Positions 8,205 to 51,299 of a DNA stretch of 64,000 nt are shown in pieces. This DNA comes from a virus. Numbering within the stretch: the first letter of the stretch is position 1; each line of letters opens with the position of its first letter. The stretch is from positions 1 through 64,000 of the IMG/VR virus record IMGVR_UViG_3300009173_000010, one strand, 5' to 3'. The notes beneath the pieces were generated by a model. That model did no database searches. It saw only the letters and a program-made list of their open reading frames with translations, and had not been told where the DNA came from. Made by a program: the position numbers and the translations under genes.

Positions 8205-8243
8205 TATCATACAATGCAAGTAATACTTCGATAAATACTTGTA

Positions 8244-8420
8244 ACAAGTGCTCTAATTAGTACTTGTGTCTCGTTCCGTAACAGGAACTCCATGCGTTTA
8301 TCTGCCCCCGCCTGAGACCGGGGAGGTTTAGAGAGGCATCTCTTAACTAAGCCTAGGATAAGTCAACATATGCAGTTGGCCTAGTCTAGAGTGATAAACA
8401 AGCCTATTTATAGACTTAAT
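8244..8420 (+). ncRNA. Candidate structured 5' leader RNA
   Basis: Several nested stems and a possible pseudoknot between late promoter 8232 and SD 8421 (see findings). Confidence 0.5.
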
Positions 8421-8435
8421 GGAGGTAATCATAAA

Positions 8436-13722: not shown

Positions 13723-14178
13723 TTAAGGAGCCTCGGGGGAAACCCCGGGGTTTTCTTTTAATTCTCTTTGAAGAATAGAGGTAAGTTTGTTAACATTATT
13801 TTTATTATGAAGGATAAGTTTAGTTCCGGCATGTAATGGTTTCGGCCACGCTCCAATTTTAACCCAAGCATAACCATCATTTTCATCATTTAAAATAGGA
13901 TGGAATTCACTATTAATTATACTAACAAAACTTGCATATTTAAATGCTTCGTCGTTGCTAATAAAATTATCTAAAGGATATGTTTTAAGAATTTTTGGAA
14001 CGAAAATAAGTTCTTCTTTAATTTCTCGGGTTAATGCTATACCTAAAGATTCGCCCGGCTCGACCTTACCACCAAAAAAACTCCAGGTTAAAGGGTGCGA
14101 ACTTTCTGCACTTCGAAGTCCTAACATTACACGTTTTGTTTTTAAACTTAAAAATATGGTGCCTACGGCCTCAATCAC
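13723..14178 (-). CDS. NUDIX hydrolase
   Basis: Nudix box GGKVEPGESLGIALTREIKEE. Confidence 0.9.
   Translation of the reverse strand: MIEAVGTIFLSLKTKRVMLGLRSAESSHPLTWSFFGGKVEPGESLGIALTREIKEELIFVPKILKTYPLDNFISNDEAFKYASFVSIINSEFHPILNDENDGYAWVKIGAWPKPLHAGTKLILHNKNNVNKLTSILQRELKENPGVSPEAP
13728..13758 (+). terminator. Intrinsic terminator
   Basis: CCTCGGGG-GAAA-CCCCGGGG followed by TTTTCTTT; a second hairpin precedes it at 13691-13723. Confidence 0.7.
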
Positions 14179-14298: not shown

Positions 14299-15696
14299 TT
14301 AATTTACAATTTTCCAGAAACCTGGATAATATCTTCCTTGGTAAGAATTTGCCCATTCTATACCGTCCCATTTAAACTGTTCACCAGTAAAATTATTTTG
14401 AATATAAGTAGGGCCCGATGACCCTGACGAATCAAAATGCACTACCCACGCACCACCGTTGTATTGTATTAAATCGTTTTTGCTTGCTTGTAAATTTGCC
14501 CATGCATTGGTAACATCTGCGGCATCAGGCCCGCCAATATCATCTAAAATTAGATATCGCTGATTAACGGCGGCCGCAGGTAATGTACCATCACCTGGAT
14601 AATTGTTATGTGGATTAATTACTGCATTTACAGTAAGATCTGTTCCTGGCAATGTATCGGTATCAACCGTAAAATCAACGACGTTTGTTACTCCGGTTGT
14701 AGCGATAGTTCCAACAATGTCATTTGGATCTGTTTGTAATTCAGGATCAGATTGTAACCTTAATCTAACTTGTGTTACATTATTTGTTATACCACCATAT
14801 GGTAGTAAGTATTTTGCCCAATCAAATGCCGCGCCAGTTGAATCTTCATTAATACCAGCGTGAGTTAATAATTGTATTTGAGGGGGGGTTCCCGAAACCA
14901 CTTTGATTGAAGTATCTTCTGGTGTAACAATTTGCCTATTTAGATAAGTTGCATCACCAAAAAAGTCAAATGCTTCTGGATCATAATTAAGATCTATATC
15001 TTGTGTTCTAGTAGTAACTTGATGAATTAATTTTTGTTGTGTTATTTTGACCGGAGGACTAACCCAAACTGGCATTGTAAATGTTAATGACCCAACATCA
15101 ATTTGAGAATCAATACCTTGTGGGACACCTCTAGCAGACCAACTAATATCTGTTAGTTCAACTACAGTTAATGATGTCCAATCTAATATGTTTGTATTTG
15201 CTTGTAATTCAATTGCAGGATTAAACAGTACTAATATTTGTTCCATTAATTGTAATTTTTGATCGGTATTACTAGTCCATATATCAACTTGCATAGTTAA
15301 CGTATATGGTGTTGGCATTAATCTTTCGACGGTATACATATTACCAATTTCGTTTGTATATTTTCCTGTTTCTTGATCAAATTTTCGTTCTGTTACATGT
15401 TTTTGATCTGTATAAAATGGGTCAAGTGTTCGTGTTCTGTCTGGTTGTAGTGTTAATATATGAGATGTAATAAATGGACACGAGTTAACAACATTCTCAC
15501 TATTGTTTCGTAATATATGCCCAACCATTCTTTGCATATCAGCATATCTGCAAGGTACCTTTATAAATTTTTCTATGTCGTCTTTGCCCTTACCAGTTTT
15601 AATTAATAAGCCACCAAATAATCGCATAAATTGCAGAAGGTATCTGCGAAATTGCTCATCATAAAAGTATCCTGCTTCGTTATATCTAGTTGCCAT
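14299..15696 (-). CDS. gp15: Tail sheath stabiliser/terminator (gp15-like)
   Basis: YFYDEQFRRYLLQF, VPCRYAD, PTPYTL..QVDIW, QLMEQILVLFNP motifs. Confidence 0.85.
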   Translation of the reverse strand: MATRYNEAGYFYDEQFRRYLLQFMRLFGGLLIKTGKGKDDIEKFIKVPCRYADMQRMVGHILRNNSENVVNSCPFITSHILTLQPDRTRTLDPFYTDQKHVTERKFDQETGKYTNEIGNMYTVERLMPTPYTLTMQVDIWTSNTDQKLQLMEQILVLFNPAIELQANTNILDWTSLTVVELTDISWSARGVPQGIDSQIDVGSLTFTMPVWVSPPVKITQQKLIHQVTTRTQDIDLNYDPEAFDFFGDATYLNRQIVTPEDTSIKVVSGTPPQIQLLTHAGINEDSTGAAFDWAKYLLPYGGITNNVTQVRLRLQSDPELQTDPNDIVGTIATTGVTNVVDFTVDTDTLPGTDLTVNAVINPHNNYPGDGTLPAAAVNQRYLILDDIGGPDAADVTNAWANLQASKNDLIQYNGGAWVVHFDSSGSSGPTYIQNNFTGEQFKWDGIEWANSYQGRYYPGFWKIVN

Positions 15697-15697
15697 T

Positions 15698-16795
15698 TTA
15701 GAAATCCGACTTTGGTTTTACTGCTTTACTTATACCTTGTTTTGAAGGAATAGTAGCACCAGTATTGCCATCAATAATTAAATTAGTATTTTTTGTAAAT
15801 TTATGTAGAATTGCATTACCAGCCGCCCATATACCACGTTGATCGTCTTCGACTTTAAGCCAATGATTACCTGATTTTTTATATAATCGATGAGGAGTAT
15901 AATCTGTGCGTAAATAATATGCACCGTCGGTGGCGTTTGTTGGAAATGTTGCGCCACTACCAACAACAGATGCACCGTTATCGGGTACAGCATCTTCAAG
16001 AAATATACCTTTCTTTTTATCAGTTTCATTAAAATATAAATGAGCAGTATCAAATCCGTGTTTTGGAACTTCATTTTCTGCTTGTTCAAGTACTGCTTCG
16101 CTTATATCAATTTCACTACTATATGTACTAAGAATATTTTTTAAATCATCTGCATCATCGCCGTCGCCGAGAATATCTCTATATTCGACTGTATCTTGCA
16201 ATGCTTGGCACTTGACACGTATCATGTGTGGCCACCAATTTGCATCAAATCCGCCTGCTTCTCTTACAACATCTTCTACAACATAAAATTTGCGTATCGG
16301 ACCTGCTGAATTATCAAGTCCTGTATCATCAGCCAAGTGTGGCAATTCTAAAACATCGCCGCTCATTATTTTACGACCTAAAATAGTCATATGATCATTT
16401 AAATGAAATGTCATATAAATGTTATCAGCAGATAGAAACATACCAAATTGTGTTAAATCAAAATCATTATCTTGTGGTTGATATACGCCTCGCATATCAT
16501 AAACAATTTCATCATATTTGCGATCTCTATTTTCTAAGAATAATAAATCTTGTATTTTTGTTTCTGCAACAATGTTTTTAGGATCTGTTGATTTCTTTGA
16601 CGCATAGTTAGGTTTTGTTGCATCTGCTTTATTTACAGTTCCGTCTGGGTTAATTGTTTCGCCCTGGTCATAGACACCTATATACTTGTGTATAAAAACA
16701 CCAGTACCGCCAGCATAAATATGTTCGCCGACTAACCGATCTACAAATTTGTAGTCATTGCCCTTTTCAGGCCTCCATAATCATAGTCGTGGCAT
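15698..16795 (-). CDS. gp14: Neck/head-closure protein (gp14-like) with in-frame TGA at codon 5
   Basis: SD AGAGG and ATG 16795 read MPRL*LWRPEKGNDYKF, then open in frame into the listed ORF 15698..16495 (IQDLLFLENRDRKYD, FDLTQFG, GDVLELPHL). Confidence 0.75.
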
Positions 16796-16835
16796 ATAAT
16801 GTAACCTCTTTATTGTATTTACCGTTTTCTTTAGG

Positions 16836-16864
16836 TTGACAAATGGATAAATGTAGTTTATCAT
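16836..16864 (+). promoter_or_regulatory. Sigma70-like early promoter
   Basis: TTGACA-17 nt-TATCAT. Confidence 0.7.
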
Positions 16865-16895
16865 ATATAAGTACATAAAATCTCGTGGAGATATA

Positions 16896-18197
16896 ATGGC
16901 CATTTATAAAACAACTAAAAAATCTAAAAAACGTAGACCTCGTAAAAAAACAGACCTCGGCGAGTCCCCCAATTGGCCAGTATTTTTAGCCGACGGCCCT
17001 ACGGATATGGCTATATATTCATATCATTCGCATTCTATGCAATGGTATAACTATAATCATAAAGCCAAAGATTTGCGTAAAGATGTTGAATTGTATCTAA
17101 AAAAGAACAAATATTCTAAAAAAGACATTAATGCTTGGAAGGCCGCAGATGTTTGGCGTACAGGTGTTACTGTTTCAGGTTTATGTAAAATGATGAATGA
17201 AGGAATGATTGAGGTTCTACCTAATCCGTATAAACAAGATAATAAGTATAAACATTCTTATGATAAAACTTGGGAGCCTGTATCTGGACATATATGGATA
17301 CAAAACAAACTTGCTGAAATAATTGATCATGGTAAAAAAGCAATTGCTGAAAACAAAGTAGTTGAAAAAGAAAATAAATTAAAAGCACCCCCAAAAACAA
17401 TTCAAGAACGTATGCACGAAAAACTTTTAGAATTTTTAGAAGAAACCGAAGGTGCAATAGAAGATTTTTTATATGGTGACAAGCCTTTTGTATCAGATTA
17501 TAGTATGTATAAACATCTTACAAGAGACGCATTGCCTCCTAAAATAGCATCGCAAATTGTTAAAATATATGAAGGCGAGGCCGAAGAATACCAAGAATTA
17601 GCAAAGCCTTGCACAGAATCACAATTAAAGAAAATGACTGAGCAGGATCAAGATTATCATATGCAACTGTTAGAAGGACATTCTCATACGACAAAACCTC
17701 AAGCAAAAAAAATTGCTACGTTTTATGAAACCCTTATTGCTGATGTTAATATGTATATTGATTCTGCTAAAGTTTCGAGAACACCTCGTAAGAAAAAAGC
17801 ACCAACAAAAGAAAAGTTAATAGCAAAACTTAAATTTAAAACAAATGATGAAAAATATAGGATAGCAAGTATTAATCCAATAGATATTATCGGTGCTGAT
17901 GAATTATGGGTGTTTAATACTAAAACACGTAAACTTGGAAAGTATATAGCATTGAATACCGATCCTATGGGACTTAAAAGAGATGGTTCGGGACTATCAG
18001 TAAAAGGTACTACAATTTTAGGTTTTCATGTTGAACAAAGTATTCAGAAGACTTTGCGTAAGCCTGAAGAACAATTAAAAGAATTTACAAAATCAGGAAA
18101 AGTAAAACTTCGAAAGTTTCTCGAAAAAATTAAGACTACAGATATTAAATTAACCGGTAGAATTAATAACGAGACGATTATACTCAAAGCCAGTTAA
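16896..18197 (+). CDS. Conserved phage hypothetical protein (basic)
   Basis: 433-aa ORF, SD GGAG; C-terminal LWVFNTKTRKL...QKTLRKP...GRIN region typical of large myophage proteins. Confidence 0.75.
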   Translation: MAIYKTTKKSKKRRPRKKTDLGESPNWPVFLADGPTDMAIYSYHSHSMQWYNYNHKAKDLRKDVELYLKKNKYSKKDINAWKAADVWRTGVTVSGLCKMMNEGMIEVLPNPYKQDNKYKHSYDKTWEPVSGHIWIQNKLAEIIDHGKKAIAENKVVEKENKLKAPPKTIQERMHEKLLEFLEETEGAIEDFLYGDKPFVSDYSMYKHLTRDALPPKIASQIVKIYEGEAEEYQELAKPCTESQLKKMTEQDQDYHMQLLEGHSHTTKPQAKKIATFYETLIADVNMYIDSAKVSRTPRKKKAPTKEKLIAKLKFKTNDEKYRIASINPIDIIGADELWVFNTKTRKLGKYIALNTDPMGLKRDGSGLSVKGTTILGFHVEQSIQKTLRKPEEQLKEFTKSGKVKLRKFLEKIKTTDIKLTGRINNETIILKAS

Positions 18198-18233
18198 ATA
18201 CATATAGAAATGTATTTGAAGGAGATGGGTCTA

Positions 18234-18503
18234 ATGGGACACTTGAAAGATGCCGCGATCGCGGCGAATCGTAAATGTAACTTTTCTTATTACTGCTATC
18301 ATGCTTGGATAGCATGCCGAGCAGGAACCTTGTTGGGATATTTGTCACTAATGTCATATGTCCATGCTTTTTTTCCGTTCGTATATGCTAAGTTCGGCCT
18401 GGCTGAATTAATTATTCGTAATACTAATAATATACGTAGGTCTATACCCGATTGGGAAGGCTGGAAAGAGTTAGATAATTGGGATGATGAGAAATACAAA
18501 TAA
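18234..18503 (+). CDS. Small protein, possibly DUF6356-like
   Basis: SD AAGGAG; HLK...YH...VHAFFPF pattern; start uncertain. Confidence 0.5.
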   Translation: MGHLKDAAIAANRKCNFSYYCYHAWIACRAGTLLGYLSLMSYVHAFFPFVYAKFGLAELIIRNTNNIRRSIPDWEGWKELDNWDDEKYK

Positions 18504-18564
18504 ATAATACTATGAAAAAACTTCTACTAATTATCATTGATAAGTCCGTAGTAAAGGAATAATA

Positions 18565-21500
18565 ATGTTTAACTTGAACGATAGATATATCGTTTCGAGT
18601 GGTGAATTTGTTCTGTCAGGTGTACAAGCAATTGTAAAATTGTCCCTTCTTCAAAAAGAACTTGATAAGAAGAATGGGTTAAATACTGCCGGTTATGTAA
18701 CAGGATACAGAGGATCGCCGCTCGGAACAGTAGATAAGGAGTTTCTCGCCCAGAGAGACCTTTTAACTAAAAACAACATTACTTTTCATCCTAGCATTAA
18801 CGAAGATATTGCAGTTGCAACATTGCAAGGTACACAGCAATTAGGCATTGTATCCAAGGCTACTGTTGACGGCGTATTTGGATTCTGGTATGGCAAAGGC
18901 CCGGGTGTTGATAGATCCGGAGATCAATTTAAGCATACAAGTTTTTTTGGTACTTCGCAATATGGTGGCTGTTTAGCATTTGCTGGTGACGATCATTCAA
19001 ACAAAAGTTCTACTATCCCCCACGAGACTGGCCCCACGTTTAAAACGTGGCGTATACCCGTTATAACGCCCGCTACAGTGGAGGATGTTATCCGGCTGGG
19101 TCTAATGGGTATCGCTATGAGTCGATACAGTGGATTATGGTCTAGTATGAAGATTATTTCTAACTTAGCAGATGCGTATCAAACTGTTAGTATTAATTTA
19201 GATAGTTGGAAGCCAAATATCCCTAATAATCCTCCAGTGGTGTTTGATGTTCATGCACGGTGGCCTGATTTAGGTGTTGAGCAAGAAGCACGTATTACAG
19301 AACAAAAACTTCCTGCATTGCAAGAATTTATGCGGTATAATATGTTTGATAGTTATAACTTGCCAAAAGAAACGCATATGCGATTTAGTAGTGATAATCG
19401 CGTTGGCATTGTTGCTGTCGGAAAAAGTTATGTTGATACGTTAACTGCAATGCAAAAACTTGGAATTACAACAGATGATGTTGGTTTATATAAAGTTGGA
19501 ATAGCCTGGCCATTGCACGAAGAACACCTCATAAATTTTTGTACATCATATCATGATATTCTTGTTGTCGAAGAAAAATCTGGATTAGTTGAAGATCAAT
19601 TGTATAAACTTTTATATAATAAACAACATAAGTGTAATTCTAGTAGAGATCAAATAAAAATACATGGTAAGAATTTATTACCGCAAAATTTAGATTTTGA
19701 TGCATATGAAATAGCAAAAGCATTACAAGAATTATTTGATAAAACCGGCGGTGTTTGGGGTTGGGGTATTGGAAATGCTGACGGCGGCAAGAAAGCATTA
19801 GACGTAAAACTAGACGATAGTTACGAATCAGTAGAAAAAAGAGAACCGCATTTTTGTAGTGGTTGCCCACACAATTCAAGTACAGTATTACCAGAAGGTA
19901 GCAAAGCATTAATAGGCATTGGTTGTCATTATATGACAGCGTGGATGCCTGACAGGCCAAGTGTTACGTTAATGCCTATGGGCGGCGAAGGCGCAAACTG
20001 GATTGCGGCACAACATTATCAAGAAGCCAAACACGTATTTGTAAACTTAGGTGACGGTACATATTTTCATAGTGGATTGTTAGCAATTAGAGCAAGCGTT
20101 GCCGCTGATAGTACTATTACATATAAAATATTATATAATGATGCAGTAGCAATGACAGGCGGCCAGCCAATAGATGGTGACCTCTCGGTAGCACGTATAT
20201 GTGAACAAGTAATGGCAGAAGGGGTTAAAGACGTAGCAGTAGTTACAGTCGATGGTTATGCTAATGAAATTTTGCCGCGCGGAGTTACATTACATTCAAA
20301 AGACGAATATATACAGTTGCAAAAAAGTTATACAAAAATTAAAGGCACTAGTGTAATAGTATTTGATCAACAATGTGCTACAGAAAAAAGAAGAAAACGA
20401 AAACGAGGCTTACAACCACTAGCAGAAGAATTTGTATGGATTAATTCAGCAGTATGTGAGAACTGTGGTGACTGTTCAACACAATCAAATTGTCTAAGTA
20501 TAATTCCAACAGAAACTAAATTAGGAACAAAACGACAAATAGATTATGATAACTGTAACTATTCTTACGATTGCTTAGAAGGATTCTGTCCTTCGTTTGC
20601 TACAATTAAAGGACGTAAACCAGCAGTAGAACTTGTTAAACCAAAGTTCCCAAAGTTAGTTAATTATTTGCATCCAAAAATTTCAAAGCCGGAACGTTAT
20701 AATATACTTGTTGCTGGTATCGGCGGCACTGGCGTTATTAGCACTAGTCAAATGATGTGTGTTGCCTCACATATCGATGGCATAAAAGTTATCTCAACAG
20801 ATCAGACCGGGTTAGCACAAAAGTACGGAGCAGTAACATCTACAATTAGTTTAGGAGAGAAAGCATTTGGCAGAATGTTTCCAAAATCCTGTGATGTAGT
20901 AATAGGCATAGATCCACAAGTTACAGCAATGGAAGATTCAATGCGTTTTATTGGGCCGAATACAACAGTTATTCTTAATAAAAGTTTGGCGGCCAATGCT
21001 GAGATAATAAGAAATAGAGATTGGAAGTTAGAACTTGATGATATTGTTAATGTATTAAAAACACAATGTAAGGAAGTAATTATTATAGATGCTTCTAATT
21101 ACGCTAAAAAAATAACTGGTAATGCTGTAATGGTTAATATGTTGATGCTTGGTTACGCATATGAAAAATGCTTGTTACCATATAGTGAAAAAGCAATGAT
21201 AAAAGCAATTGAAGCAAACGGTGTCGCAGTAGATAGTAATAAAAATGCGTGGATGATTGGCAGGCAATCTGCTACAGTCGAAGGCCATGGCGCAATTGAA
21301 CGTTCTTTGAATCCAGAGGTAAAAGATACTTTTTATAGTGCAATGTATCATAGGCACGAATTGTTAAAGAAATATCAAGACGAAGAATATGCTAACATTT
21401 ATTTAGACATAGTTACGAGAGCAAAGTTAAAAGAAGATTTCTTAAATTCAGGCACTCACAGTCATTTTAATACAGAATTTTCCGAAGCAGTAATGCGTAA

Positions 21501-21918
21501 TTTATACAAGTTAATGGCATACAAAGATGAATATGAAGTAGCCCGTATTTGGAGTGCAACACCTGAAATTAACAAATATAAAACAATTAAATTTCATATG
21601 TGCTTGCCTTGGAATCGAAAGTCACAAAAGAAAACAAGAATAGGCACGTGGGCAAAATATGTATTTGCTGTATTACAACATGGTAAAAAACTTAGAGGTA
21701 AAATATATGATCCTCTTGGATTTACATATGAACGAAGGCTGGAAAGAAAAATAAGAGATTGCTATATTTTGTTGGTTGAAGAGTGGATCAAAAATATTAA
21801 GACGGATAACTATAGTAATACAGAAAGACTAGCAAAACTCCCTGATAACATTAGAGGATATGGACATATTAAGTTAGCAAGTATTTGTAATTGTGAATTA
21901 TTTAAGGACGTAATATGA
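18565..21918 (+). CDS. Fused indolepyruvate:ferredoxin oxidoreductase family protein (IorA+IorB)
   Basis: GYRGSPLG, GDDH..KSST, FCSGCPHN, GIGCHYM, NLGDGTYFHSG...YNDAVAMTGGQ (TPP), CENCGDC and C..C..GFCPSF (Fe-S), GIGGTG, GLAQK, LMAYKDEYEVAR, IRGYGHIK. Confidence 0.93.
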   Translation: MFNLNDRYIVSSGEFVLSGVQAIVKLSLLQKELDKKNGLNTAGYVTGYRGSPLGTVDKEFLAQRDLLTKNNITFHPSINEDIAVATLQGTQQLGIVSKATVDGVFGFWYGKGPGVDRSGDQFKHTSFFGTSQYGGCLAFAGDDHSNKSSTIPHETGPTFKTWRIPVITPATVEDVIRLGLMGIAMSRYSGLWSSMKIISNLADAYQTVSINLDSWKPNIPNNPPVVFDVHARWPDLGVEQEARITEQKLPALQEFMRYNMFDSYNLPKETHMRFSSDNRVGIVAVGKSYVDTLTAMQKLGITTDDVGLYKVGIAWPLHEEHLINFCTSYHDILVVEEKSGLVEDQLYKLLYNKQHKCNSSRDQIKIHGKNLLPQNLDFDAYEIAKALQELFDKTGGVWGWGIGNADGGKKALDVKLDDSYESVEKREPHFCSGCPHNSSTVLPEGSKALIGIGCHYMTAWMPDRPSVTLMPMGGEGANWIAAQHYQEAKHVFVNLGDGTYFHSGLLAIRASVAADSTITYKILYNDAVAMTGGQPIDGDLSVARICEQVMAEGVKDVAVVTVDGYANEILPRGVTLHSKDEYIQLQKSYTKIKGTSVIVFDQQCATEKRRKRKRGLQPLAEEFVWINSAVCENCGDCSTQSNCLSIIPTETKLGTKRQIDYDNCNYSYDCLEGFCPSFATIKGRKPAVELVKPKFPKLVNYLHPKISKPERYNILVAGIGGTGVISTSQMMCVASHIDGIKVISTDQTGLAQKYGAVTSTISLGEKAFGRMFPKSCDVVIGIDPQVTAMEDSMRFIGPNTTVILNKSLAANAEIIRNRDWKLELDDIVNVLKTQCKEVIIIDASNYAKKITGNAVMVNMLMLGYAYEKCLLPYSEKAMIKAIEANGVAVDSNKNAWMIGRQSATVEGHGAIERSLNPEVKDTFYSAMYHRHELLKKYQDEEYANIYLDIVTRAKLKEDFLNSGTHSHFNTEFSEAVMRNLYKLMAYKDEYEVARIWSATPEINKYKTIKFHMCLPWNRKSQKKTRIGTWAKYVFAVLQHGKKLRGKIYDPLGFTYERRLERKIRDCYILLVEEWIKNIKTDNYSNTERLAKLPDNIRGYGHIKLASICNCELFKDVI

Positions 21919-22331
21919 AGTTGCAAGGATTACATCATTTTGCGTGGAAGTGCCGAAACGCAGATGAAACGATACATTTTTATTCACATATCTTAAAACT
22001 TCCACACGTTCATACTATCGAAAAGGATCATGTTCCGAGTACAGGAGCATATGCACCTTATAAACATATTTTCTTCCAAATGGAAGATGGCAGTAATATT
22101 GCTTTTTTTGATTTAGGTGATAATAAAGGAACCACAACAGATTGTGATGATTGGGTAGTGCATTTTGCTTTTAATGTTAGTACAAAAGAAGATGTTGATA
22201 ATTGGTGTCAATATTTAAAAAATAATAATATAGATGTTATAGGCCCTACTAATCATGATGATTGGATTTATAGCATTTATTTTTTCGATCCTAATGGATT
22301 GAGATTAGAGATTACAACACAGATAAACTAG
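21915..22331 (+). CDS. VOC/glyoxalase family protein
   Basis: LHHFAWKC, HFAF, SIYFFDPNGLRLE; ATGA overlap with IOR. Confidence 0.9.
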   Translation: MKLQGLHHFAWKCRNADETIHFYSHILKLPHVHTIEKDHVPSTGAYAPYKHIFFQMEDGSNIAFFDLGDNKGTTTDCDDWVVHFAFNVSTKEDVDNWCQYLKNNNIDVIGPTNHDDWIYSIYFFDPNGLRLEITTQIN

Positions 22332-22347
22332 TATATGGAAATATTAA

Positions 22348-23106
22348 ATGACAGGCGGCCGAATAAAAGATTCAAGTAGTGTAAAAATAACACAGTTTTG
22401 TGATGGGAGCGCATATTTAATTCATGCGGAAAGAGTTCGAAAATCACGCGGAGAAGAATTACCTGAGCAATTGAGAACAGATCCGTTAATGTACCAAGGC
22501 GTTAGCGATAAATTTTTAGAATATAACGAACCAATATATCCTTATAAAGAGGCATATGGTTTAGATTTTGAAGCAGAAGTTGGTGTAATTTTAGATGATA
22601 CCCCAATGGGGGTATCTGTATCCGAAGCAACAGAATATATTAAATATGTTACAATTATTAATGACATTAGTTTGCGTAAATTAATACCTGCAGAATTAGC
22701 AAAAGGTTTTGGATTTTTACAAGGAAAACCTCATAGTTCCCTTGGATTAAAATGTATTCCTTTGCGTTTTTTAAATGGCACTTGGAAAGAACATGATGCT
22801 GTATTAGATGCAGACTTGGTTATTAATTATAATGGTGAGGAATTTGGTAGAATTAATACTGCAAATATGGATTTTAATTTTGCACAACTAATTTCACATG
22901 CGGCAAAAACTCGTCCATTGTCTTCAGGAACATTGATAGGAAGCGGCACTGTAAGCTCTCATGATCTTTCTGACGGTTATGGTTGTTTATTAGAACGCAA
23001 TGTAGTTGAAAGCATTAATGAATTTATGAATCCCGGCGATACAATTAAAATGTATATAGTTGGATATGAAGATACATTAATTATAGATCAACAAGTTGCT
23101 TTCTAG
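22348..23106 (+). CDS. Fumarylacetoacetate hydrolase family protein (probably N-terminally shortened)
   Basis: DGSAY, PLMYQG, DFEAEV, NDISLR, GFGFLQGKP, GSGTVS motifs. Confidence 0.88.
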   Translation: MTGGRIKDSSSVKITQFCDGSAYLIHAERVRKSRGEELPEQLRTDPLMYQGVSDKFLEYNEPIYPYKEAYGLDFEAEVGVILDDTPMGVSVSEATEYIKYVTIINDISLRKLIPAELAKGFGFLQGKPHSSLGLKCIPLRFLNGTWKEHDAVLDADLVINYNGEEFGRINTANMDFNFAQLISHAAKTRPLSSGTLIGSGTVSSHDLSDGYGCLLERNVVESINEFMNPGDTIKMYIVGYEDTLIIDQQVAF

Positions 23107-23134
23107 GTAAATACTACTGTATAGAGGGACACAG

Positions 23135-23887
23135 ATGCCACGAAAACCTACTTTAGCACGAAATGAAGTTATTCAGCGTTTAACAACACGTCTCGGCGGC
23201 GGCATGGTTGATGTGGAATTAGATCCAGATCATTATAATGTTGCTATCGATAGAGCAATTGATCGCTATAGACAGCGATCATCTAATGCTACCGAAGAAA
23301 GCGGAATGTTTTTAACGTTGCAACCAGACATAACAGAGTATATTCTACCAAATGAAGTATTAGAAGTACGTAAGTTATATAGACGTGCTATAGGCAGTGA
23401 TTCTGGCACAGGCGCTGGAATAGATCCATTTGATATGGCATTTACAAATCTTTATATTTTGCAAGCAGGCCGCGTTGGCGGCGTCGCTTTATATGATGCA
23501 TTTACTCAATACCAAGAAGTTGTAGGTAGAATTTTTGGTAGCGAAACAAATTTTATGTGGCATCCTAATACACACAAGTTAGAAATTATTCGAAGAGTAA
23601 AGAATGAAGAAAGCATTCTTTTACATGTTCATAACGAAAAACCAGAGAATGAAGTATTAAGAGATCGTAGAAGTAGATTATGGTTAGAGGATTATGCTTT
23701 GGCAAATTGTAAAATTATGTTAGGAGAAGCAAGAGGAAAATATCAATCCTTACCTGGTGCAGCCGGCGGCGTAGCCTTAAATGGCGAGACTTTAAAACAA
23801 GAAGGCCAAGCCGAGTTAGATCGGCTCGAAATGGAAATTACTCGTTACGGAGACGGCGGCGAACCACCTACTTTTATAATCGGTTAA
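23135..23887 (+). CDS. gp13: Neck protein (gp13-like head-tail adaptor)
   Basis: RLGGGMVDVELD, WLEDYALA..K..LGEARGKY..LPG..GGVALNG. Confidence 0.88.
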   Translation: MPRKPTLARNEVIQRLTTRLGGGMVDVELDPDHYNVAIDRAIDRYRQRSSNATEESGMFLTLQPDITEYILPNEVLEVRKLYRRAIGSDSGTGAGIDPFDMAFTNLYILQAGRVGGVALYDAFTQYQEVVGRIFGSETNFMWHPNTHKLEIIRRVKNEESILLHVHNEKPENEVLRDRRSRLWLEDYALANCKIMLGEARGKYQSLPGAAGGVALNGETLKQEGQAELDRLEMEITRYGDGGEPPTFIIG

Positions 23888-23896
23888 GGAGTTCAA

Positions 23897-24166
23897 ATGT
23901 TACCAACCGATTCCCGGGCCGAATGGCCCTATATAAATAAACCTCCCCAATATGGCACTATGGATGATCTGTCCACTGCTGATTTACTACAACTTGAAAA
24001 ATTAATTTTAAATACATTAAAAGGAAATACAAATAGAGGACCAACGTATGGTGAGTTTTCTATTGTAGGACTTAATGGTTGGTTAAACGAGTGTCGTAGT
24101 ATTTTACAAAAACGTAAGTATAAAAGTTCTTATAAAATATTAAAAAATATGGTGTTAACTGCTTGA
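23897..24166 (+). CDS. Hypothetical protein
   Basis: SD AAGGAG, 89-aa ORF in operon order. Confidence 0.6.
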   Translation: MLPTDSRAEWPYINKPPQYGTMDDLSTADLLQLEKLILNTLKGNTNRGPTYGEFSIVGLNGWLNECRSILQKRKYKSSYKILKNMVLTA

Positions 24167-24191
24167 CATAGACTAAGAATAATGTTATTAT
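24163..24191 (+). promoter_or_regulatory. Sigma70-like promoter with extended -10
   Basis: TTGACA-17 nt-TATTAT, preceded by TGn. Confidence 0.65.
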
Positions 24192-24197
24192 AATATT

Positions 24198-24887
24198 ATG
24201 ATTATTGGGTTATCTGGATTAGCAGGTAGTGGTAAAGATACAGTAGCATCTTTTATTGCTGAAAAGCACGAATTTGATAGAGTAAGTTTTGCCGGCGCCT
24301 TAAAAGATGCTACGGCCGCAGTTTTTTCCTGGCCGCGAGAATTACTTGAAGGCGACACAAATGAAAGTAGAGATTGGCGAGAACAAGTAGACACTTATTG
24401 GAGTGCAAAGTTTGGTTATGCTGTTACTCCTCGGACAATTCTTCAACAGTTTGGTACAAATGTATGCAGAGAACATTTAAATGATAATATCTGGATTTAT
24501 TGTGTAGAGAAAAAATTACAAGAAAATAACAAAAATAAATTAAATACAGTAATTACAGATGTGCGGTTTCCAAATGAAATAAAAATGATTAAACAGGCCG
24601 GCGGAAAGTGTTTTCATGTTAAACGTGGCCCAGAGCCTAAATGGTGGCACTTGGCAAAGGCAGCAAATGGGTTAGAAGAAAATTTTAAAAATGATGTCAT
24701 GTTCGAAGGAGATAGTGCTGTAATTTCTAATAAATTAGAGATTGAATATAATCTCCATATTAGTGAGTGGGCCTGGGTCGGGTCTTCGTTTGATAGTGTA
24801 ATAAATAATAATAGTACATTAGAGGCGTTAGATGAAAAAGTAACCAATCTATTAGCCGTTTATGATTTCTTTGGCAAGGATATATAG
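24198..24887 (+). CDS. Deoxynucleoside monophosphate kinase (T4 gp1-like)
   Basis: IIGLSGLAGSGKDT P-loop, FAGALKD, PRTILQQFGT, ITDVRFPNE, HISE. Confidence 0.92.
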   Translation: MIIGLSGLAGSGKDTVASFIAEKHEFDRVSFAGALKDATAAVFSWPRELLEGDTNESRDWREQVDTYWSAKFGYAVTPRTILQQFGTNVCREHLNDNIWIYCVEKKLQENNKNKLNTVITDVRFPNEIKMIKQAGGKCFHVKRGPEPKWWHLAKAANGLEENFKNDVMFEGDSAVISNKLEIEYNLHISEWAWVGSSFDSVINNNSTLEALDEKVTNLLAVYDFFGKDI

Positions 24888-25015
24888 TCAGCCAGTAATT
24901 AACGTAATATAGAATGATGAAAGGCAACCGGCTATATAGTCGGTTTTATAATGATTTCCAATAAATACTGTTAACAACTTATATAAGTTATTATTAAGTT
25001 TAAGGGGAAAGATAA

Positions 25016-27715
25016 ATGCCAACATTAGTATCACCGGGCGTATCGGTTAGCGTAATCGATGAGTCCTTTTACGGATCCGCTGGTTCCGGTACTATACCTT
25101 TAATTGTATTCGCAACGGCTGCCACTAAGGCACACCCAAGCGGCACAGGTACAGCAACTGGTACAACAGCGATCACAGATGAAGTAAAACTTATTACTTC
25201 ACAACGAGAACTAATTCAAACATATGGCGATCCTTCCTTCAGGTCGGTTAGCGGAACACAAATTCATGCTGATAATCAGAATGAATATGGTCTATTAGCG
25301 GCACATAGTTACCTAGGAATTGCAAACAGAGCATATATGCTTCGTGCAAATCTTGATTTAGGTCAACTAGGTGCGGCTTCGACTGCTCCAGCCGGCGCAC
25401 CTGTTAATGGTACACACTGGTTAGATTTAACAACATCTACGATGGGCGTTTTTTCTTACAATGCGGGAACAGCAACTTGGGTTGCACAAACTGCATCTAA
25501 GTTAAACGCATCCACTGAGGTTGATGCTGGTACCGGTGCACCGTTAAATAGTATCGGCCTGGACGGAGCGTTCGCATGGGTTGCAACTGTAGGTGGCAAT
25601 GCTCATAATAGAATCTGGAACAAAGTAAGTGGTGTTTGGTATCACTTAGGTACAGATACTTGGAGAGCAGCCGCATCAAAAGACTTTCAGTTTGCCGCAC
25701 ATACTGCCATACCAACTGTAAAATCAACAGAAGGTGGCGGCGGTGCATTAGCAACCGGCGATGTATGGATTAAAACAACAGAATTCAATAACGGTACAAA
25801 AATGGTAGTGAAATCATATGATACATCTACCAAGAAATGGACCACAATTACTTGCCCAGTATTAGCAGATACAACCGCGGCTTGGACAAATTTTACAACT
25901 CCAGTTGCAGGTAACTTGTTTGCTAAGTACAATCACGAGCAAGGAGCACACACTTTAAAAGTTGCATCACATTCAATTTTACGATTTAATGGTAGTGCAA
26001 CACTAGCAGTTACAGGTAGTGCCAATCCAGCACCAACTGCAACGCACACAATGGTAATTAATGGTACAACCGTTACGTACTCATCGAGTGCAGATTCAGC
26101 AGTTATTAGGACGGCAGCACTTGTTAATTCGGCGGCGATCACAAATATTACCGCTAGTGTAGCAAGTAACAAACTAGTTATTACAAATACAGCAGGTAAG
26201 GACATTGTTCTTGCCGCGGGTTCAGGGACTTTGATTACTGATTTAGGTCTAACCGCAGGAACAAGTTCAAACTGGGTTGCACTCAGTTATGAGCCAAATT
26301 TAAATACTCCAGTTGGTGCCACACCTAATGGTACATTATGGTATGATAGCAGAATTACTACAGTAGATTTGCTTGAAACATATGATAATGCAGGTGTGAC
26401 AACATGGAGAACATTTAGTGGTACATTAACACCATCGGCATCAAAACCAACAACACCTTCTGCAGGTGATATATGGATTGATACAACTGACACTGAAAAT
26501 TATCCACTAATGTACAAATATAATGGTACAACATCTGTTTGGGATGTTATTGATAAGACAGACCAGACAACTAGCGAAGGTATTATATTTGGCGATTTCC
26601 GAGAAACTGCGTCTAGTTCATTGGAATCAGACGCACCAGTGCCAGCAACATATCCAGTTGGTATGTTGGGTTGGAACTTTATGGCTTCTGGCTATAATGT
26701 TAAGAAGTATAACTCAACTACTGCTAAATGGGTTAATGAATCCGGCACCAAAACAGCAGGTGATCCATATATGGGTCGTCATGCTACTAAGAAGGTTATT
26801 GTTAGAGCACTAGCGGCCGCACTTAACTCGAACCAGGATATTAGAGCAGAAACTAGATTCTTTAATCTAATTGCTTGCCCAGGTTTCCCAGAGTTAATTG
26901 ACGAAATGAAAACCTTGCACATTGATCGTAAGGAACAAACATTCGTTATTTGCGATGTTCCGTTTAGGCTTGCATCCTCTGGTACAGCAGTACAAAATTG
27001 GGCAACCAATGCGGCTAACGCGGCAGAGAATGGCGAAGACGCCCTACTAAGTTCAGGTCATGAACTAGGCGTATGGTATCCAGGCGGTTGCTTAGTATCA
27101 AATACTGATGGTACAAACGTTGTACAACCAGCATCTCATATTATGTTGAGACAGATGGCATACAACGATCAAGTAGCGTATCAGTGGTTTGCTCCAGCAG
27201 GTTATCAACGAGGCCTTGTGCAGAATGCAACAAGTGTTGGTTATATTAGTGCTGAACAAGAATATGTACCAGTAACACTAAACCAAGGTCAGCGTGATGT
27301 ACTTTATACAAATAAGGTTAATCCAATTGCATTTATGCCTAATAGAGGTTTAACTGTATTTGGTCAAAAGACACTTTATCCGTTAACAAGTGCATTAGAT
27401 CGTATTAATGTATCTCGTTTGGTTGCTTTTTTGCGTAAGCAGTATGATGATATGGCACAGCCATTCTTATTCGAGCCAAATGATACTTACACTAGAGATC
27501 AAGTACTAGAAGTATTCAATGGTTTTATGGCAGATCTTATTACAAAAAGAGCAGTATATGACTTCTTAGTTGTTTGTGATGATAGTAACAACACACCAAC
27601 AAGGATTGATCGTAACGAGCTTTGGATTGATGTAGCGATTCAGCCAGTTAAAGCAATTGAGTTTATTTACATTCCTGTAAGAATTAAGAATACAGGAGAG
27701 TCATTAACTACATAA
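25016..27715 (+). CDS. gp18: Tail sheath protein (gp18-like)
   Basis: LVSPGVSVSVIDES, WFAPAG..RG, RDVLY..KVNPI, GQKTL, ALDRINVSRL, FEPND, DVAIQPVKAIEFI. Confidence 0.96.
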   Translation: MPTLVSPGVSVSVIDESFYGSAGSGTIPLIVFATAATKAHPSGTGTATGTTAITDEVKLITSQRELIQTYGDPSFRSVSGTQIHADNQNEYGLLAAHSYLGIANRAYMLRANLDLGQLGAASTAPAGAPVNGTHWLDLTTSTMGVFSYNAGTATWVAQTASKLNASTEVDAGTGAPLNSIGLDGAFAWVATVGGNAHNRIWNKVSGVWYHLGTDTWRAAASKDFQFAAHTAIPTVKSTEGGGGALATGDVWIKTTEFNNGTKMVVKSYDTSTKKWTTITCPVLADTTAAWTNFTTPVAGNLFAKYNHEQGAHTLKVASHSILRFNGSATLAVTGSANPAPTATHTMVINGTTVTYSSSADSAVIRTAALVNSAAITNITASVASNKLVITNTAGKDIVLAAGSGTLITDLGLTAGTSSNWVALSYEPNLNTPVGATPNGTLWYDSRITTVDLLETYDNAGVTTWRTFSGTLTPSASKPTTPSAGDIWIDTTDTENYPLMYKYNGTTSVWDVIDKTDQTTSEGIIFGDFRETASSSLESDAPVPATYPVGMLGWNFMASGYNVKKYNSTTAKWVNESGTKTAGDPYMGRHATKKVIVRALAAALNSNQDIRAETRFFNLIACPGFPELIDEMKTLHIDRKEQTFVICDVPFRLASSGTAVQNWATNAANAAENGEDALLSSGHELGVWYPGGCLVSNTDGTNVVQPASHIMLRQMAYNDQVAYQWFAPAGYQRGLVQNATSVGYISAEQEYVPVTLNQGQRDVLYTNKVNPIAFMPNRGLTVFGQKTLYPLTSALDRINVSRLVAFLRKQYDDMAQPFLFEPNDTYTRDQVLEVFNGFMADLITKRAVYDFLVVCDDSNNTPTRIDRNELWIDVAIQPVKAIEFIYIPVRIKNTGESLTT

Positions 27716-27827: not shown

Positions 27828-28418
27828 ATGGTAACTCTTAATAAATTCGGTATTAATGTCGACGACAGCCAACGAGGTATTTTACAGCCAAAACTTAAAT
27901 ATAAGTTTCGCGTAGTATTCTTTAATTATGGCGGCGCCGGCGGTGGTCGAGAGTATACACAAAATGTTGTATCTGTTGATCGCCCAAAACTTTCATACGC
28001 TGAAGTTCCAATTCATTCGTATAACTCAATTGCATATGCTATGGGTAAGCACGAATGGGCAACAATGACTTGTGCAATTCGAGATGACGTTAGCAATGAT
28101 GTTGTCGGCCTAACTGGTCGTCAAGTTCAGCGCCAAGTTGATCATCACAACCAAACATCGGCACTTAGTGGTGCAGATTTTAAATTTGGTATGAGAATTG
28201 ACATTATGACAGGTGCGGCAAATTCTATTCTTGAGCAGTGGACCTTAGAAGGTTGCTTCTTGCAGAATGTTGATTATGACGGCGGCGATTACTCCGCAAG
28301 TGAACCATTGATTGTAACATTAACTGTGCGCTTTGATAATGCAACGCATTTTGGAGCAAATGGGTCCGATCAATTGACACCAGCAGGACTAACCCAACAG
28401 AATACGGGCACGGCATAA
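27828..28418 (+). CDS. gp19: Tail tube protein (gp19-like)
   Basis: Follows sheath; PKLKYKFRV, GKHEW, WTLEGCF..NVDY, LTVRFDNA. Confidence 0.85.
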   Translation: MVTLNKFGINVDDSQRGILQPKLKYKFRVVFFNYGGAGGGREYTQNVVSVDRPKLSYAEVPIHSYNSIAYAMGKHEWATMTCAIRDDVSNDVVGLTGRQVQRQVDHHNQTSALSGADFKFGMRIDIMTGAANSILEQWTLEGCFLQNVDYDGGDYSASEPLIVTLTVRFDNATHFGANGSDQLTPAGLTQQNTGTA

Positions 28419-30481: not shown

Positions 30482-30886
30482 ATGAGTACACAATTAACAG
30501 GAGCAACCGGTTTAGTTAAATCTTTTGGTAAGACAAAAAAGTCTGAGCCAGGCAGTACATTTTTAAGTAATATTAATATGGGCGAAATGCAGATTAATGG
30601 AGCCGAGTTTGATATTGTTCGTGGTATACTTGAAGCAGATCATAATGTATCAAGCGAAGTCAAGAATGTTTTAGCAGTTCTTATGTTAGAAGCGGCAAAA
30701 GGCCTTAATATTAGTGTTACTGAATTGGTCGAATTAGGTAGCATAAATCCTAATAAAATTAGTATACCAGAAGTAGGTCTCGAGATGATTAATCGATTGA
30801 GACCGATTACGAGCCAAATTGGAATGAAAACTGTTAATGCCAAAGCATCTGATGTTGTGTACATTGACAGGAATATTATTTCATAA
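30482..30886 (+). CDS. Hypothetical (probable baseplate-region) protein
   Basis: TAAATA-N5-ATG start; overlaps the start of gp4. Confidence 0.6.
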   Translation: MSTQLTGATGLVKSFGKTKKSEPGSTFLSNINMGEMQINGAEFDIVRGILEADHNVSSEVKNVLAVLMLEAAKGLNISVTELVELGSINPNKISIPEVGLEMINRLRPITSQIGMKTVNAKASDVVYIDRNIIS

Positions 30887-31347
30887 TGGCCAAACAACCC
30901 AAGTTTGCAAGAGGGTTATTCACTCCTCAAAATCATAAAAAATATGTTGGTTTAAAACAGCCAAGATACAGATCTGGCTGGGAATTAGCATTTATGAGAA
31001 TGTGTGATGCTCATCCTAATATAGTTAGTTGGGCAAGCGAACCATTACGAATTCCATATATTAATCCAATGACAGGACGCAAAACAAATTATATTCCAGA
31101 TTTTGTAATACAGTATAGAGATCGGCATGGTAAAGCACATAATGAAGTAATTGAAATTAAACCATTTGCCCAGACTACAGACGAAAGAGCAGGTAGCCAA
31201 ACAGAAAAAGCAATGGCTTTAGTTAACAAGGCCAAATGGCAAGCCGCATACGAATGGTCAAGTCAACGTGGCCTACGATTTCGAGTATTAACTGAAAATG
31301 AAATTTTTATGAATCCTCAAAAAAAGAAATCTCGTAAACGTAGATAA
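30886..31347 (+). CDS. gp4: Head completion nuclease (gp4/TnsA-like)
   Basis: YRSGWE, WASEP..IPY, YIPDF, IEIKP, N.AKW.AA, FRVLTE. Confidence 0.92.
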   Translation: MAKQPKFARGLFTPQNHKKYVGLKQPRYRSGWELAFMRMCDAHPNIVSWASEPLRIPYINPMTGRKTNYIPDFVIQYRDRHGKAHNEVIEIKPFAQTTDERAGSQTEKAMALVNKAKWQAAYEWSSQRGLRFRVLTENEIFMNPQKKKSRKRR

Positions 31348-32484: not shown

Positions 32485-32500
32485 TTCCGGAGTGGATGAA

Positions 32501-38121: not shown

Positions 38122-38172
38122 ATCTCCAATCATATAAATAAATTACAGTTGTATTTGTCAAGGAGGGTTCTT

Positions 38173-51298: not shown

Positions 51299-51299
51299 T

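Follow-up and report, generated by a model that had tools for sequence, protein, structure and literature searches.

The indolepyruvate:ferredoxin oxidoreductase (IOR) of Pyrococcus converts arylpyruvate and CoA to arylacetyl-CoA, CO2 and reduced ferredoxin, as given in a passage of PMC5109826 that cites Mai and Adams (1994). In the IorAB type of Pyrococcus furiosus the enzyme consists of two subunits, while proteobacteria have a form fused in one chain (NF009589/PRK13030 and NF009588/PRK13029). Here we describe a gene of the fused kind in a viral sequence, IMG/VR record IMGVR_UViG_3300009173_000010. The stretch analysed, called the window in the following, is the first 64 kb (positions 1 to 64,000) of this 72.8-kb linear record, the CheckV completeness of which is 20%. 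The gene is followed by a VOC-family and an FAH-family gene:

18565-21918, + strand: fused indolepyruvate:ferredoxin oxidoreductase family protein, a single polypeptide of 1117 aa
21915-22331, + strand: VOC metalloenzyme, single module, 138 aa (PF00903, Glyoxalase/VOC)
22348-23106, + strand: FAH-family hydrolase, 252 aa, catalytic domain only (PF01557, FAA_hydrolase, 101.6 bits)

This cassette is genuine phage DNA, fully ameliorated, and it is composed of two separable modules, the IOR and a mobile VOC-FAH pair with varying partners. With middling confidence we read the two as side-by-side auxiliary modules for the catabolism of amino-acid skeletons, lying in a variable neck-tail slot of a marine jumbo myovirus. 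Of this reading, the genes and their families, the intact motifs, the purifying selection, the conserved location in phages, the physical continuity and the occurrence in an RNA library are shown, whereas the substrates, the direction of the reactions, the acceptor of the electrons and what the phage gains are what we infer. A sequence-only reading of the window had already picked out a fused IOR with intact thiamine diphosphate (TPP) and Fe-S motifs, a translationally coupled VOC protein and an FAH-family protein, flanked by phage genes, as AT-rich as these and preceded by TAAATA; its coordinates, families and motifs were all found again.

The IOR protein

The phage IOR scores 1142.4 bits with NF009589/PRK13030 (cut-off 816), residues 2-1109 being aligned to positions 16-1145 of the 1170 in the profile, and it contains the Pfam domains PF02775 (TPP_enzyme_C), PF01558 (POR) and PF20169 (DUF6537). 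It is collinear with the proteobacterial fused enzymes over the full length and has the same domains and the same cofactor residues, but it is only 36-43% identical to those compared, 30-50 residues shorter through several small deletions, and forms a clade of its own, linked to VOC-FAH and without an adjacent Lrp/AsnC regulator. In an alignment of 54 sequences (22 from the phage clade, 32 bacterial) every row has the motif GDG496-498...N525 (GDG-X(26)-N) as well as E80; as in other TPP enzymes, the former is predicted to bind thiamine diphosphate/Mg, and E80 would be the conserved Glu of the N-terminal pyrimidine-binding domain. Eleven cysteines (431, 434, 454, 604, 631, 634, 637, 643, 664, 670 and 675) are invariant in 54/54 sequences as well. 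They are predicted Fe-S ligands, and we infer which cluster each of them would bind. The ferredoxin-like region holds seven conserved Cys, which do not follow the 2 x CxxCxxCxxxCP pattern of classical ferredoxins.

Homology to the two-subunit enzyme covers residues 45-671 (TIGR03336, E 2e-38) and 712-896 (TIGR03334, E 2e-23). The scores of 131.9 and 83.5 bits are far under the equivalog cut-offs of these models (650.9 and 205.8 bits, respectively), and judged by these profiles the phage protein is a homolog of IorA/IorB and not a member of that group. It differs from IorAB in being fused in one chain and in the extra C-terminal DUF6537, and its chemistry is presumed to be the same. The PDB sequence search with IOR gave nothing at E <= 0.001, and the PDB profile search yielded marginal gamma-subunit matches only (E 0.03-0.09).

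The phage IOR is matched by none of the PHROG families, and megablast of 16500-25000 against GenBank phages gave no match. Among 50,697 GenBank phage records the full-length IOR matches were only two records of one mislabelled Acinetobacter contig, and the literature search brought up no paper in which a phage gene of the IOR family is described. Such oxidoreductases are thus very rare among collected phages, as the sequence-only reading had supposed. The protein search has brought together a phage IOR clade of at least 16 clusters at 90% identity (P0001-P0016), 46-92% identical and with 196 member sequences; the best bacterial homologs there reached 40-42% identity, and none was higher. The Acinetobacter contig is the 378.6-kb record labelled 'Acinetobacter phage MD-2021a' (CAKLQF020000001.1); in the 21 kb inspected (218671-240042) it has nothing but common catabolic genes of bacteria (fadD, fadR, pcaIJ and a liu-type cluster), and looks like a mislabelled bacterial contig.

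The VOC and FAH proteins

The stop codon of IOR and the start codon of VOC overlap as ATGA at 21915-21918. The AlphaFold model of the VOC protein has a pLDDT of 95.8, and its top Foldseek match is 9u42 (TM 0.90, rmsd, root-mean-square deviation, 2.0, 38% identity), which is also recovered by profile (E 1e-43) and by phmmer (E 3.5e-29 over residues 3-134). The title of this entry reads 'Homogentisate 1,2-Dioxygenase' from Acinetobacter, in complex with Zn ion, while the molecule name is 'Glyoxalase'. Each of 27 sequences has H7, H8, H51, H83, H114 and E132, which are also the same in the alignment with 9u42; the metal ligands are presumably among these His and Glu residues, by analogy to glyoxalase I. 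The motifs HH, DHVPST, PYxHxF, WVxHxAF, NH and SIYFFDPNGxRLExT are common to the phage VOC and 9u42, but the 138-aa phage protein lacks the C-terminal extension of the latter (182 aa). Bacterial VOC orthologs nearer to the phage protein than 9u42 (46-58% identity) are unannotated VOC proteins. The canonical homogentisate dioxygenase, HmgA, has a cupin fold (PF04209) unrelated to that of the phage VOC, although the reaction proposed is identical. Judged from these similarities, the phage VOC is probably a dioxygenase of the ring-cleaving type, with a VOC-fold homogentisate 1,2-dioxygenase as its relative.

In case of the FAH protein (model pLDDT 92) the top Foldseek match was 3lzk, with 42% identity, TM 0.88-0.89 and a profile E value of 9e-88. 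This Sinorhizobium meliloti 'probably aromatic amino acid degradation protein' is a structural-genomics entry with the title only as functional label, and it is followed among the structural matches by 2,4-diketo-acid, fumarylacetoacetate and fumarylpyruvate hydrolases. D73, E75, E77, D106 and K127 are invariant in 28 sequences, the acidic metal-binding residues being kept. The bacterial forms (327-383 aa) have an N-domain, PF18288 (FAA_hydro_N_2, about 80 aa), that the 252-aa phage protein lacks. The phage FAH is not a member of the canonical fumarylacetoacetase family (25.4 bits with TIGR01266, cut-off 375.3), and its fold match to the fumarylacetoacetase 1qco has TM 0.79 at 20% identity. 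It is, by these comparisons, a probable hydrolase of a ring-fission product.

The titles of 9u42 and 3lzk taken together suggest that the pair probably performs the lower tyrosine pathway; no paper on either entry was found in the literature search. VOC and FAH have close, non-annotated marine relatives (70-82% and approx. 60% identity, respectively), far nearer than the bacterial relatives of IOR.

Physical continuity, phylogeny and selection

The region 16500-25000 was held at 98% or more of the sampled words in 8 marine/seawater runs from 8 studies. One contig of 16,685 nt in each of X1 and X5 spans 16540-25000 with 1 mismatch, and in X8 four overlapping contigs cover 16540-21540, 21513-22277, 22250-22583 and 22558-25000. 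The runs are not all independent, since any of them may be the source of the record. Since both junctions are bridged in three runs of three studies and IOR occurs in related viral contigs in the same slot, the cassette is not a chimera.

In the IOR tree calculated with LG+G4 all 22 phage-clade rows were set apart from the others by a branch with SH-aLRT 100 and a stem of 0.76, and with LG+C20+F+G4 the same was obtained for 17/17 rows (SH-aLRT 100). The first tree took in an L010 row with a spurious frame of 1789 aa and a branch of 7.4; the second left out seven rows (L010_b, L007_v, L008_b and four near-duplicates). These trees are to be read with the deviating amino-acid composition of the AT-rich rows, the long branch of L007 and the restriction of the bacterial rows to the best-scoring matches in mind. 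The window IOR is 58-61% identical to those of L003 and L004 (related phage loci, see below), within the range of seven flanking backbone genes (43-78%).

IOR is under purifying selection: dN/dS (omega) was 0.12 for L002-L003, 0.16 for L002-L004 and 0.15 for L003-L004, at dS 0.35-0.71. For VOC omega was 0.09 (L003 vs L012) and for the aminotransferase described below 0.01-0.06. All these values come from unsaturated pairs; pairs with the window have dS > 1 and are unreliable. The GC content of IOR, VOC and FAH is 0.36, 0.32 and 0.34, compared to 0.376 for the window, and their GC at third codon positions (GC3) is 0.25, 0.22 and 0.18, as against 0.17-0.33 in 11 other phage genes and 0.40 in orf97, the small frame in front of IOR. 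IOR qualifies as an auxiliary metabolic gene: it is of host type, lies between genes of a bona fide phage, is kept in related phages and is subject to purifying selection. Junction coverage, phylogeny, dN/dS and a search for the trio in viral databases had been proposed as checks by the sequence-only reading; the first three gave the results above, the phylogeny being that of IOR, and the trio was found again in L003, where FAH is cut by the contig end.

The phage and the boundaries of the slot

The window encodes a myovirus gene set distant from T4: prohead protease, gp23 capsid, gp15, head-tail adaptor, sheath, tube, terminase, a UvsX-like protein and helicases. Among cultured phages the tail sheath is closest to those of jumbo phages, approx. 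42% identity being found with PA5oct and Phosso and 37% with the GAP32 group, which fits an expected genome size of several hundred kb. The phage is an uncultured, T4-distant marine jumbo myovirus. The genes around the cassette are the following:

13723-14178, - strand: NUDIX, upstream backbone flank
14299-15696, - strand: T4 gp15-like, upstream backbone flank
15698-16495, - strand: phrog_11591, upstream backbone flank
16896-18197, + strand: phrog_11903 backbone gene (E 2e-58), the upstream boundary of the slot, which precedes the slot also in L002-L005
18210-18503, + strand: orf97, small conserved ORF of 97 aa heading the module
23135-23887, + strand: head-tail adaptor Ad2 (phrog_211, E 1.5e-31), the downstream boundary of the slot
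24198-24887: dNMP kinase, downstream flank
25016-27715: tail sheath, downstream flank
27828-28418: tail tube, downstream flank

Ad2 is 78% identical between the window and L004, where it lies directly 3' of IOR. The score of orf97 with PF19883 (DUF6356), 21.3 bits, is below the threshold of 24.4.

Slot contents in related phages

An alignment-based IMG/VR scan with IOR gave nine loci (L002-L010). L002-L007 are phage contigs; L008-L010 have a GC of 0.50-0.70. A single-protein pattern search of viral contigs resulted in 18 pattern matches, none of them confirmed. In L002-L005 (GC 0.34) the IOR is 55-57% identical to that of the window and occupies the same slot in the backbone NUDIX(-), gp15(-), phrog_11591(-), phrog_11903(+), slot, Ad2, dNMP kinase, sheath. 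L006 (IOR 46%) and L007 (IOR 37%) represent other phage contexts with different surroundings. The FAH-alignment search of viral contigs yielded nine loci as well, namely five identical copies (L011-L015), the L003 contig and L017-L019. The contents observed are:

window: orf97, IOR, VOC, FAH
L003: class-III aminotransferase, IOR, VOC, FAH, the last cut by the contig end
L002 and L005: aminotransferase, IOR, then the contig end
L004: thioredoxin-like protein, IOR, with Ad2 directly after
L011-L015: VOC, FAH, aminotransferase
L017-L019: NUDIX(-), gp15(-) ... orf97 homolog, 249-aa ORF, VOC, saccharopine-dehydrogenase-like gene, FAH

The four genes of L003 are chained by overlaps of 1, 4 and 29 nt, with the same ATGA at the IOR-VOC junction as in the window. 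VOC-FAH follows IOR in two of the four close-clade loci with a visible downstream side (window, L003, L004 and L006). The aminotransferases of L003 and L012 pass the NF005447 equivalog (PRK07036) with 713 and 671 bits at a cut-off of 618, and by tblastn orf97 homologs of 62-66% identity head the VOC-FAH module with the saccharopine-dehydrogenase-like gene in L017, L018 and L019. The VOC proteins of the window and L018 are 74% identical, though the backbone genes of these phages are only 42-50% identical; this suggests an exchange between phages or a very strong constraint on the protein.

Bacterial contexts of the homologs

Two sets of bacterial loci were compared: 80 loci with VOC homologs of 46-58% identity (+/-10 kb), and 80 metagenome IOR loci among the matches listed (36-46% identity, median GC 0.63, +/-7 kb where available, 60 of them with 4 kb or more of flanking sequence). 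No new phage-clade locus was revealed in the metagenomes by the IOR alignment among the matches listed. The sequence-only reading had stated that the three families occur together in proteobacterial catabolic loci, and this was not borne out. No IOR was present within 10 kb of VOC in the 80 VOC loci, VOC and FAH together were near IOR (7 kb) in 0/80 of the IOR loci listed, and none of the 160 loci (80 VOC and 80 IOR, among the matches listed) contained the trio. A phage-type VOC was seen in one of the 80 IOR loci listed (L122, 4.6 kb off, with unrelated genes between), and a weak FAH match in one other. It was the phages, and not bacteria, that brought IOR and VOC-FAH together.

The neighbours of bacterial IOR point to amino-acid catabolism. 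A divergent Lrp/AsnC regulator stands beside the gene in 27 of the 80 metagenome loci listed and in 4 of 5 fetched loci; phenylalanine hydroxylase (PAH) and HPPD are its neighbours, together with AsnC, in L105 and L107 (2 of the 5 fetched loci) and in L153 and L176 (2/80 listed). In L108, where kynureninase is also nearby, the gene immediately downstream is a Glu/Leu/Phe/Val dehydrogenase, and such a dehydrogenase is found in 4/80 listed loci. The Acinetobacter IOR adjoins a leucine/isovalerate cluster (acyl-CoA dehydrogenase, two carboxylase subunits, enoyl-CoA hydratase, lyase-like 'leuA_2', isovaleryl-CoA dehydrogenase). Since these contexts include both aromatic and leucine catabolism, the family appears to act on 2-oxoacids derived from hydrophobic amino acids, and by analogy the substrate of the phage enzyme would be aryl or branched-chain.

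An FAH homolog was found in 11 of the 80 VOC loci (+/-10 kb), adjacent in approx. 8. A 335-aa FAH lay within 2.5 kb of VOC in 10/80, typically in the order IclR-FAH-VOC, and an FAD aromatic-ring hydroxylase within the same distance in 17/80. In five pair-bearing genomes (G001-G005, from L058, L075, L029, L050 and L076) neither the canonical HmgA (0/5, Caulobacter control positive) nor a canonical fumarylacetoacetase above the cut-off (0/5) was present. Four of the five have one or two fused IORs of 40-43% identity elsewhere in the genome; in G002, for example, a single contig has VOC at 3.705 Mb and IORs at 0.67 and 4.52 Mb. G002 and G005 encode PAH and HPPD beside IOR; since the canonical HmgA and fumarylacetoacetase are missing there, homogentisate would be left without a known route, unless IclR-FAH-VOC handles it. 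Apart from the title of 9u42, the bacterial context (IclR-FAH-VOC, ring hydroxylase, no HmgA in five genomes) thus suggests a homogentisate role.

Expression signals

The cassette belongs to an unbroken block of + strand genes that begins at the divergent intergenic region 16496-16895 and reaches as far as the sheath gene, and the gaps within the module are -4 to 61 nt. The promoter candidate is the following:

18501-18506, + strand: TAAATA, a T4-type late-promoter-like core (ATAAATA at 18500-18506), overlapping the orf97 stop and 59 nt before the IOR ATG

TAAATA occurs in the 50 nt upstream (-50..-1) of 15 of 62 genes, compared to 5.9 +/- 2.3 (max 12) in composition-matched shuffles, and ATAAATA upstream of 9 (2.5 +/- 1.6 in shuffles). 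Copies of TAAATA lie within 50 nt upstream of orf97 and also upstream of Ad2; the one at 18501-18506 falls outside the counted -50 window. The exact 8-mer TATAAATA is not enriched in the window (8 found, 9.5 expected). Within 16300-25100 the sigma-70 scan gave 32 sites against 39.3 +/- 6.6 and thus no enrichment, with an 11-of-12 sigma-70-like site at 16836-16864, and the terminator scan gave 6 against 4.2 +/- 2.0, with no terminator-like site between the cassette genes. The cassette had been placed under a phage late promoter from the sequence. The enrichment of TAAATA upstream of genes speaks for this, but the claim for the cassette itself depends on a 6-mer outside the counted distance and was weakly borne out; judged from the motif, a late-type promoter is plausible.

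Metatranscriptome run X11 holds 41% of the sampled words of 16500-25000. Eight listed contigs with 0 mismatches fall on IOR, VOC, FAH and Ad2, and one of 1,240 nt (21831-23070) runs from the 3' end of IOR through VOC into FAH; an RNA library may contain DNA, and the contigs show neither strand nor level. No X11 contig was found on 16784-18487 (phrog_11903 and orf97) and the first IOR contig begins from 18608, such missing cover being no evidence of a transcript start. The cassette is probably transcribed.

Between TAAATA and the IOR start there is a hydrophobic mini-ORF of 16 codons (18512-18562, MKKLLLIIIDKSVVKE). The frame is closed by a stop codon at 18560-18562; the TAA that follows in the same frame (18563-18565) shares its last base with the A of the IOR ATG. 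The mini-ORF could be a leader peptide or pure chance.

Other genes of the window and of related contigs

The only tRNA gene of the window, tRNA-Asn(GTT) at 48509-48597, lies 10 nt after the gene of a class-II aminoacyl-tRNA-synthetase-like protein (276 aa, PF00152, D/K/N type, starting at 47669), and a similar gene of 290 aa is found in L018 (9637-10509). A 477-aa protein (5306-6739) has an N-terminal Major-tropism-determinant domain (PF18454, E 5.5e-13), the fold of diversity-generating-retroelement targets. Upstream of the NUDIX gene a 1764-aa ORF (8391-13685) matches phrog_30390 only and no Pfam family, and its position is taken by radical-SAM genes in L003-L005. The tail/baseplate block contains a collagen-triple-helix repeat protein (32492-33805, PF01391), with which a local GC of 0.505 in 33001-34000 coincides. 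Further host-like genes are a TnsA-like endonuclease among the tail genes (30886-31347), a Usg-like protein immediately before the terminase (38149-38433), a CCA-adding/poly(A) polymerase-family enzyme (48767-49978, - strand) and an HD_4 (RelA/SpoT-type hydrolase) domain protein (51282-51854).

Related jumbo-phage contigs carry further nitrogen and amino-acid genes, in L018 (4230-5186, - strand, and 10918-11850), L006 (2201-4916) and L012 (1-1511 and 11271-15060). They include a GlnII-like glutamine synthetase adjoining the VOC-FAH slot, coproporphyrinogen oxidase, and an SbmA/BacA-type transporter with an M17 leucyl aminopeptidase; TctA, DnaJ, peptide deformylase and ClpB belong to the same set. 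L007, a phage contig of 111 kb, encodes SpoVR and a family-B DNA polymerase (7194-9113) with a match to the intein-splicing domain PF14890.

Discussion

In the two-module reading the modules would be expressed together with the structural genes. IOR would oxidatively decarboxylate arylpyruvates and/or branched-chain 2-oxoacids to acyl-CoA and CO2, reducing host ferredoxin or flavodoxin. VOC would carry out an O2-dependent ring cleavage, most likely of homogentisate, and FAH the C-C hydrolysis of maleyl- or fumarylacetoacetate to acetoacetate and a C4 dicarboxylate. By the two modules together with enzymes of the host and, in sister phages, with the class-III aminotransferase of the phage, amino acids (Tyr/Phe most clearly) would be deaminated and their skeletons irreversibly broken down, by which amino nitrogen, TCA-cycle carbon, acyl-CoA and low-potential electrons would be released during infection.

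Several results weigh against this reading. No HPPD, maleylacetoacetate isomerase (MaiA) or PAH was found in the phage records G000, G006, G008, G010 and G011, thus no complete pathway is phage-encoded, and no flavodoxin or plant-type ferredoxin (Fer2) was found in G000, G006, G007, G010 and G011, where only two small Fer4 frames were seen, in the IOR-bearing G010 and in G006; all records searched for these genes are fragments except G006, which is 90% complete. The host must therefore supply the remaining pathway steps and the electron acceptor. The class-III aminotransferase does not belong to the usual class of aromatic aminotransferases. The modules also occur apart. G006, the 322.6-kb record of L013 (CheckV 90%), has VOC-FAH-aminotransferase and no IOR; L004 has IOR directly followed by Ad2, without VOC-FAH; and no VOC was present in the available G010 and G011 or in the L004/L005 records (2-35% complete). 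Such separability means that the co-location could reflect an insertion hot spot. The homogentisate label goes back to one PDB entry title at 38% identity. In 121 genomes of one order, strong HmgA was found in 9 of 22 VOC-positive and in 14 of 99 VOC-negative genomes, thus the two are not complementary and VOC is not a simple HmgA substitute; HPPD and PAH were near VOC in 0/80 bacterial loci. Since HmgA co-occurs and HPPD is not a neighbour, the substrate of VOC may be homogentisate or a related para-dihydroxy aromatic. The substrate of IOR could equally be branched-chain, in view of the Acinetobacter neighbours, and the nature of the metatranscriptome contigs described above has to be counted on this side as well.

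These results lead to a possible, if to us less probable, explanation, in which the genes are independent morons in an insertion hot spot and their adjacency is a by-product of the slot: IOR would act on branched-chain or general 2-oxoacids, and VOC-FAH on some other dihydroxy-aromatic or diketo compound, such as hydroquinone, a gentisate-type compound or a host or environmental toxicant. The cargo of the slot does vary (thioredoxin-like protein with IOR; aminotransferase with IOR, with or without VOC and FAH; VOC and FAH with the saccharopine-dehydrogenase-like gene), the 90% complete G006 has VOC-FAH without IOR, and the bacterial loci, those of IOR among the matches listed, gave 0/80 both for IOR-VOC and for VOC+FAH near IOR. 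The leucine/isovalerate neighbours of the Acinetobacter IOR, the FAD ring hydroxylases (17/80, HPPD 0/80) next to VOC and the co-occurrence of VOC and HmgA fit this explanation too. It does not account for the ATGA coupling of IOR and VOC in both the window and L003 or for the four-gene chain of L003, nor for the fact that one aminotransferase family accompanies IOR and, in L011-L015, also VOC-FAH; moreover, each module independently points to amino-acid or aromatic catabolism. A chimeric assembly or bacterial contamination of the viral bin, to which the linear fragment of 20% completeness and the bacterial type of the enzymes might give rise, has a negligible probability given the bridged junctions, the synteny kept in four further viral contigs (L002-L005), the phage-like GC3 and the lack of any bacterial homolog above 42% identity in the protein search.

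It is improbable that IOR serves chiefly as an electron supply, making reduced ferredoxin or flavodoxin for Fe-S or radical-SAM enzymes of the phage with the 2-oxoacid being secondary. Radical-SAM genes are indeed found near IOR in L006 and, 3-5 kb before the slot, in L003, L004 and L005, a thioredoxin-like gene directly precedes IOR in L004, and G010 and G006 have their small Fer4-type frames. However, no radical-SAM match was obtained in 63 scanned ORFs of the window (12 searched at E <= 0.01, 51 at E <= 1e-4), flavodoxin and Fer2 are absent from the phage records searched, the Fer4 frame of G006 occurs without IOR, and the association with the aminotransferase and VOC-FAH would be left unexplained. 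Less probable still is the reverse direction, in which IOR and the aminotransferase would reductively carboxylate acyl-CoAs to provide amino acids for phage protein synthesis. The reactions of 2-oxoacid:ferredoxin oxidoreductases (OFOR) are reversible in principle, and the aminotransferase is coupled to IOR in L002, L003 and L005. But the companion VOC is of an O2-dependent dioxygenase type, FAH is a hydrolase of catabolic pathways, the bacterial IOR relatives stand in catabolic contexts, and an aerobic surface-ocean host would presumably be unlikely to hold ferredoxin reduced enough.

Two statements of the sequence-only reading have to be narrowed accordingly within the two-module reading. 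An ameliorated auxiliary operon of 4.5 kb had been proposed; the genuine, ameliorated phage gene set stands, the single unit does not, as IOR and VOC-FAH differ in their distributions. Of the catabolism of aromatic 2-oxoacids the amino-acid theme is retained (AsnC, PAH and HPPD, 9u42, 3lzk), while an aromatic substrate is not established for IOR, a homolog of which adjoins the leucine/isovalerate cluster in Acinetobacter.

Phage auxiliary metabolic genes are mainly known for steps of photosynthesis, nucleotide, phosphate, sulfur and central-carbon metabolism. With a conserved TPP/Fe-S oxidoreductase of 3.35 kb, the marine viral repertoire would extend to amino-acid catabolism and the generation of low-potential electrons, and likewise with a two-gene ring-cleavage and hydrolysis module shuffled by several jumbo-phage lineages with aminotransferase or dehydrogenase partners. 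With 196 members in its clade and its presence in many seawater runs, the phage IOR is no isolated case. All three phage proteins are shortened (IOR 1117 aa compared to approx. 1150-1170, VOC 138 compared to approx. 180, FAH without the N-domain), which makes them compact candidates for biochemistry, as a fused OFOR without a solved structure and as a VOC-type dioxygenase, the functional label of which is so far a PDB title only. A bolder proposal, which we think unlikely though not far-fetched, is that one marine jumbo-phage lineage has put together an operon unseen in the bacterial loci examined, in which an aminotransferase, a giant oxygen-tolerant IOR, a VOC-fold homogentisate dioxygenase and a trimmed fumarylacetoacetate-type hydrolase would strip nitrogen from aromatic amino acids and burn their skeletons. 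If true, it would yield fumarate, acetoacetate, acyl-CoA and reduced ferredoxin, perhaps from other hydrophobic amino acids too, it would lend independent genetic support to a second, VOC-type class of homogentisate dioxygenase, and aromatic amino-acid catabolism would be a previously unrecognised target of viral reprogramming in the ocean.

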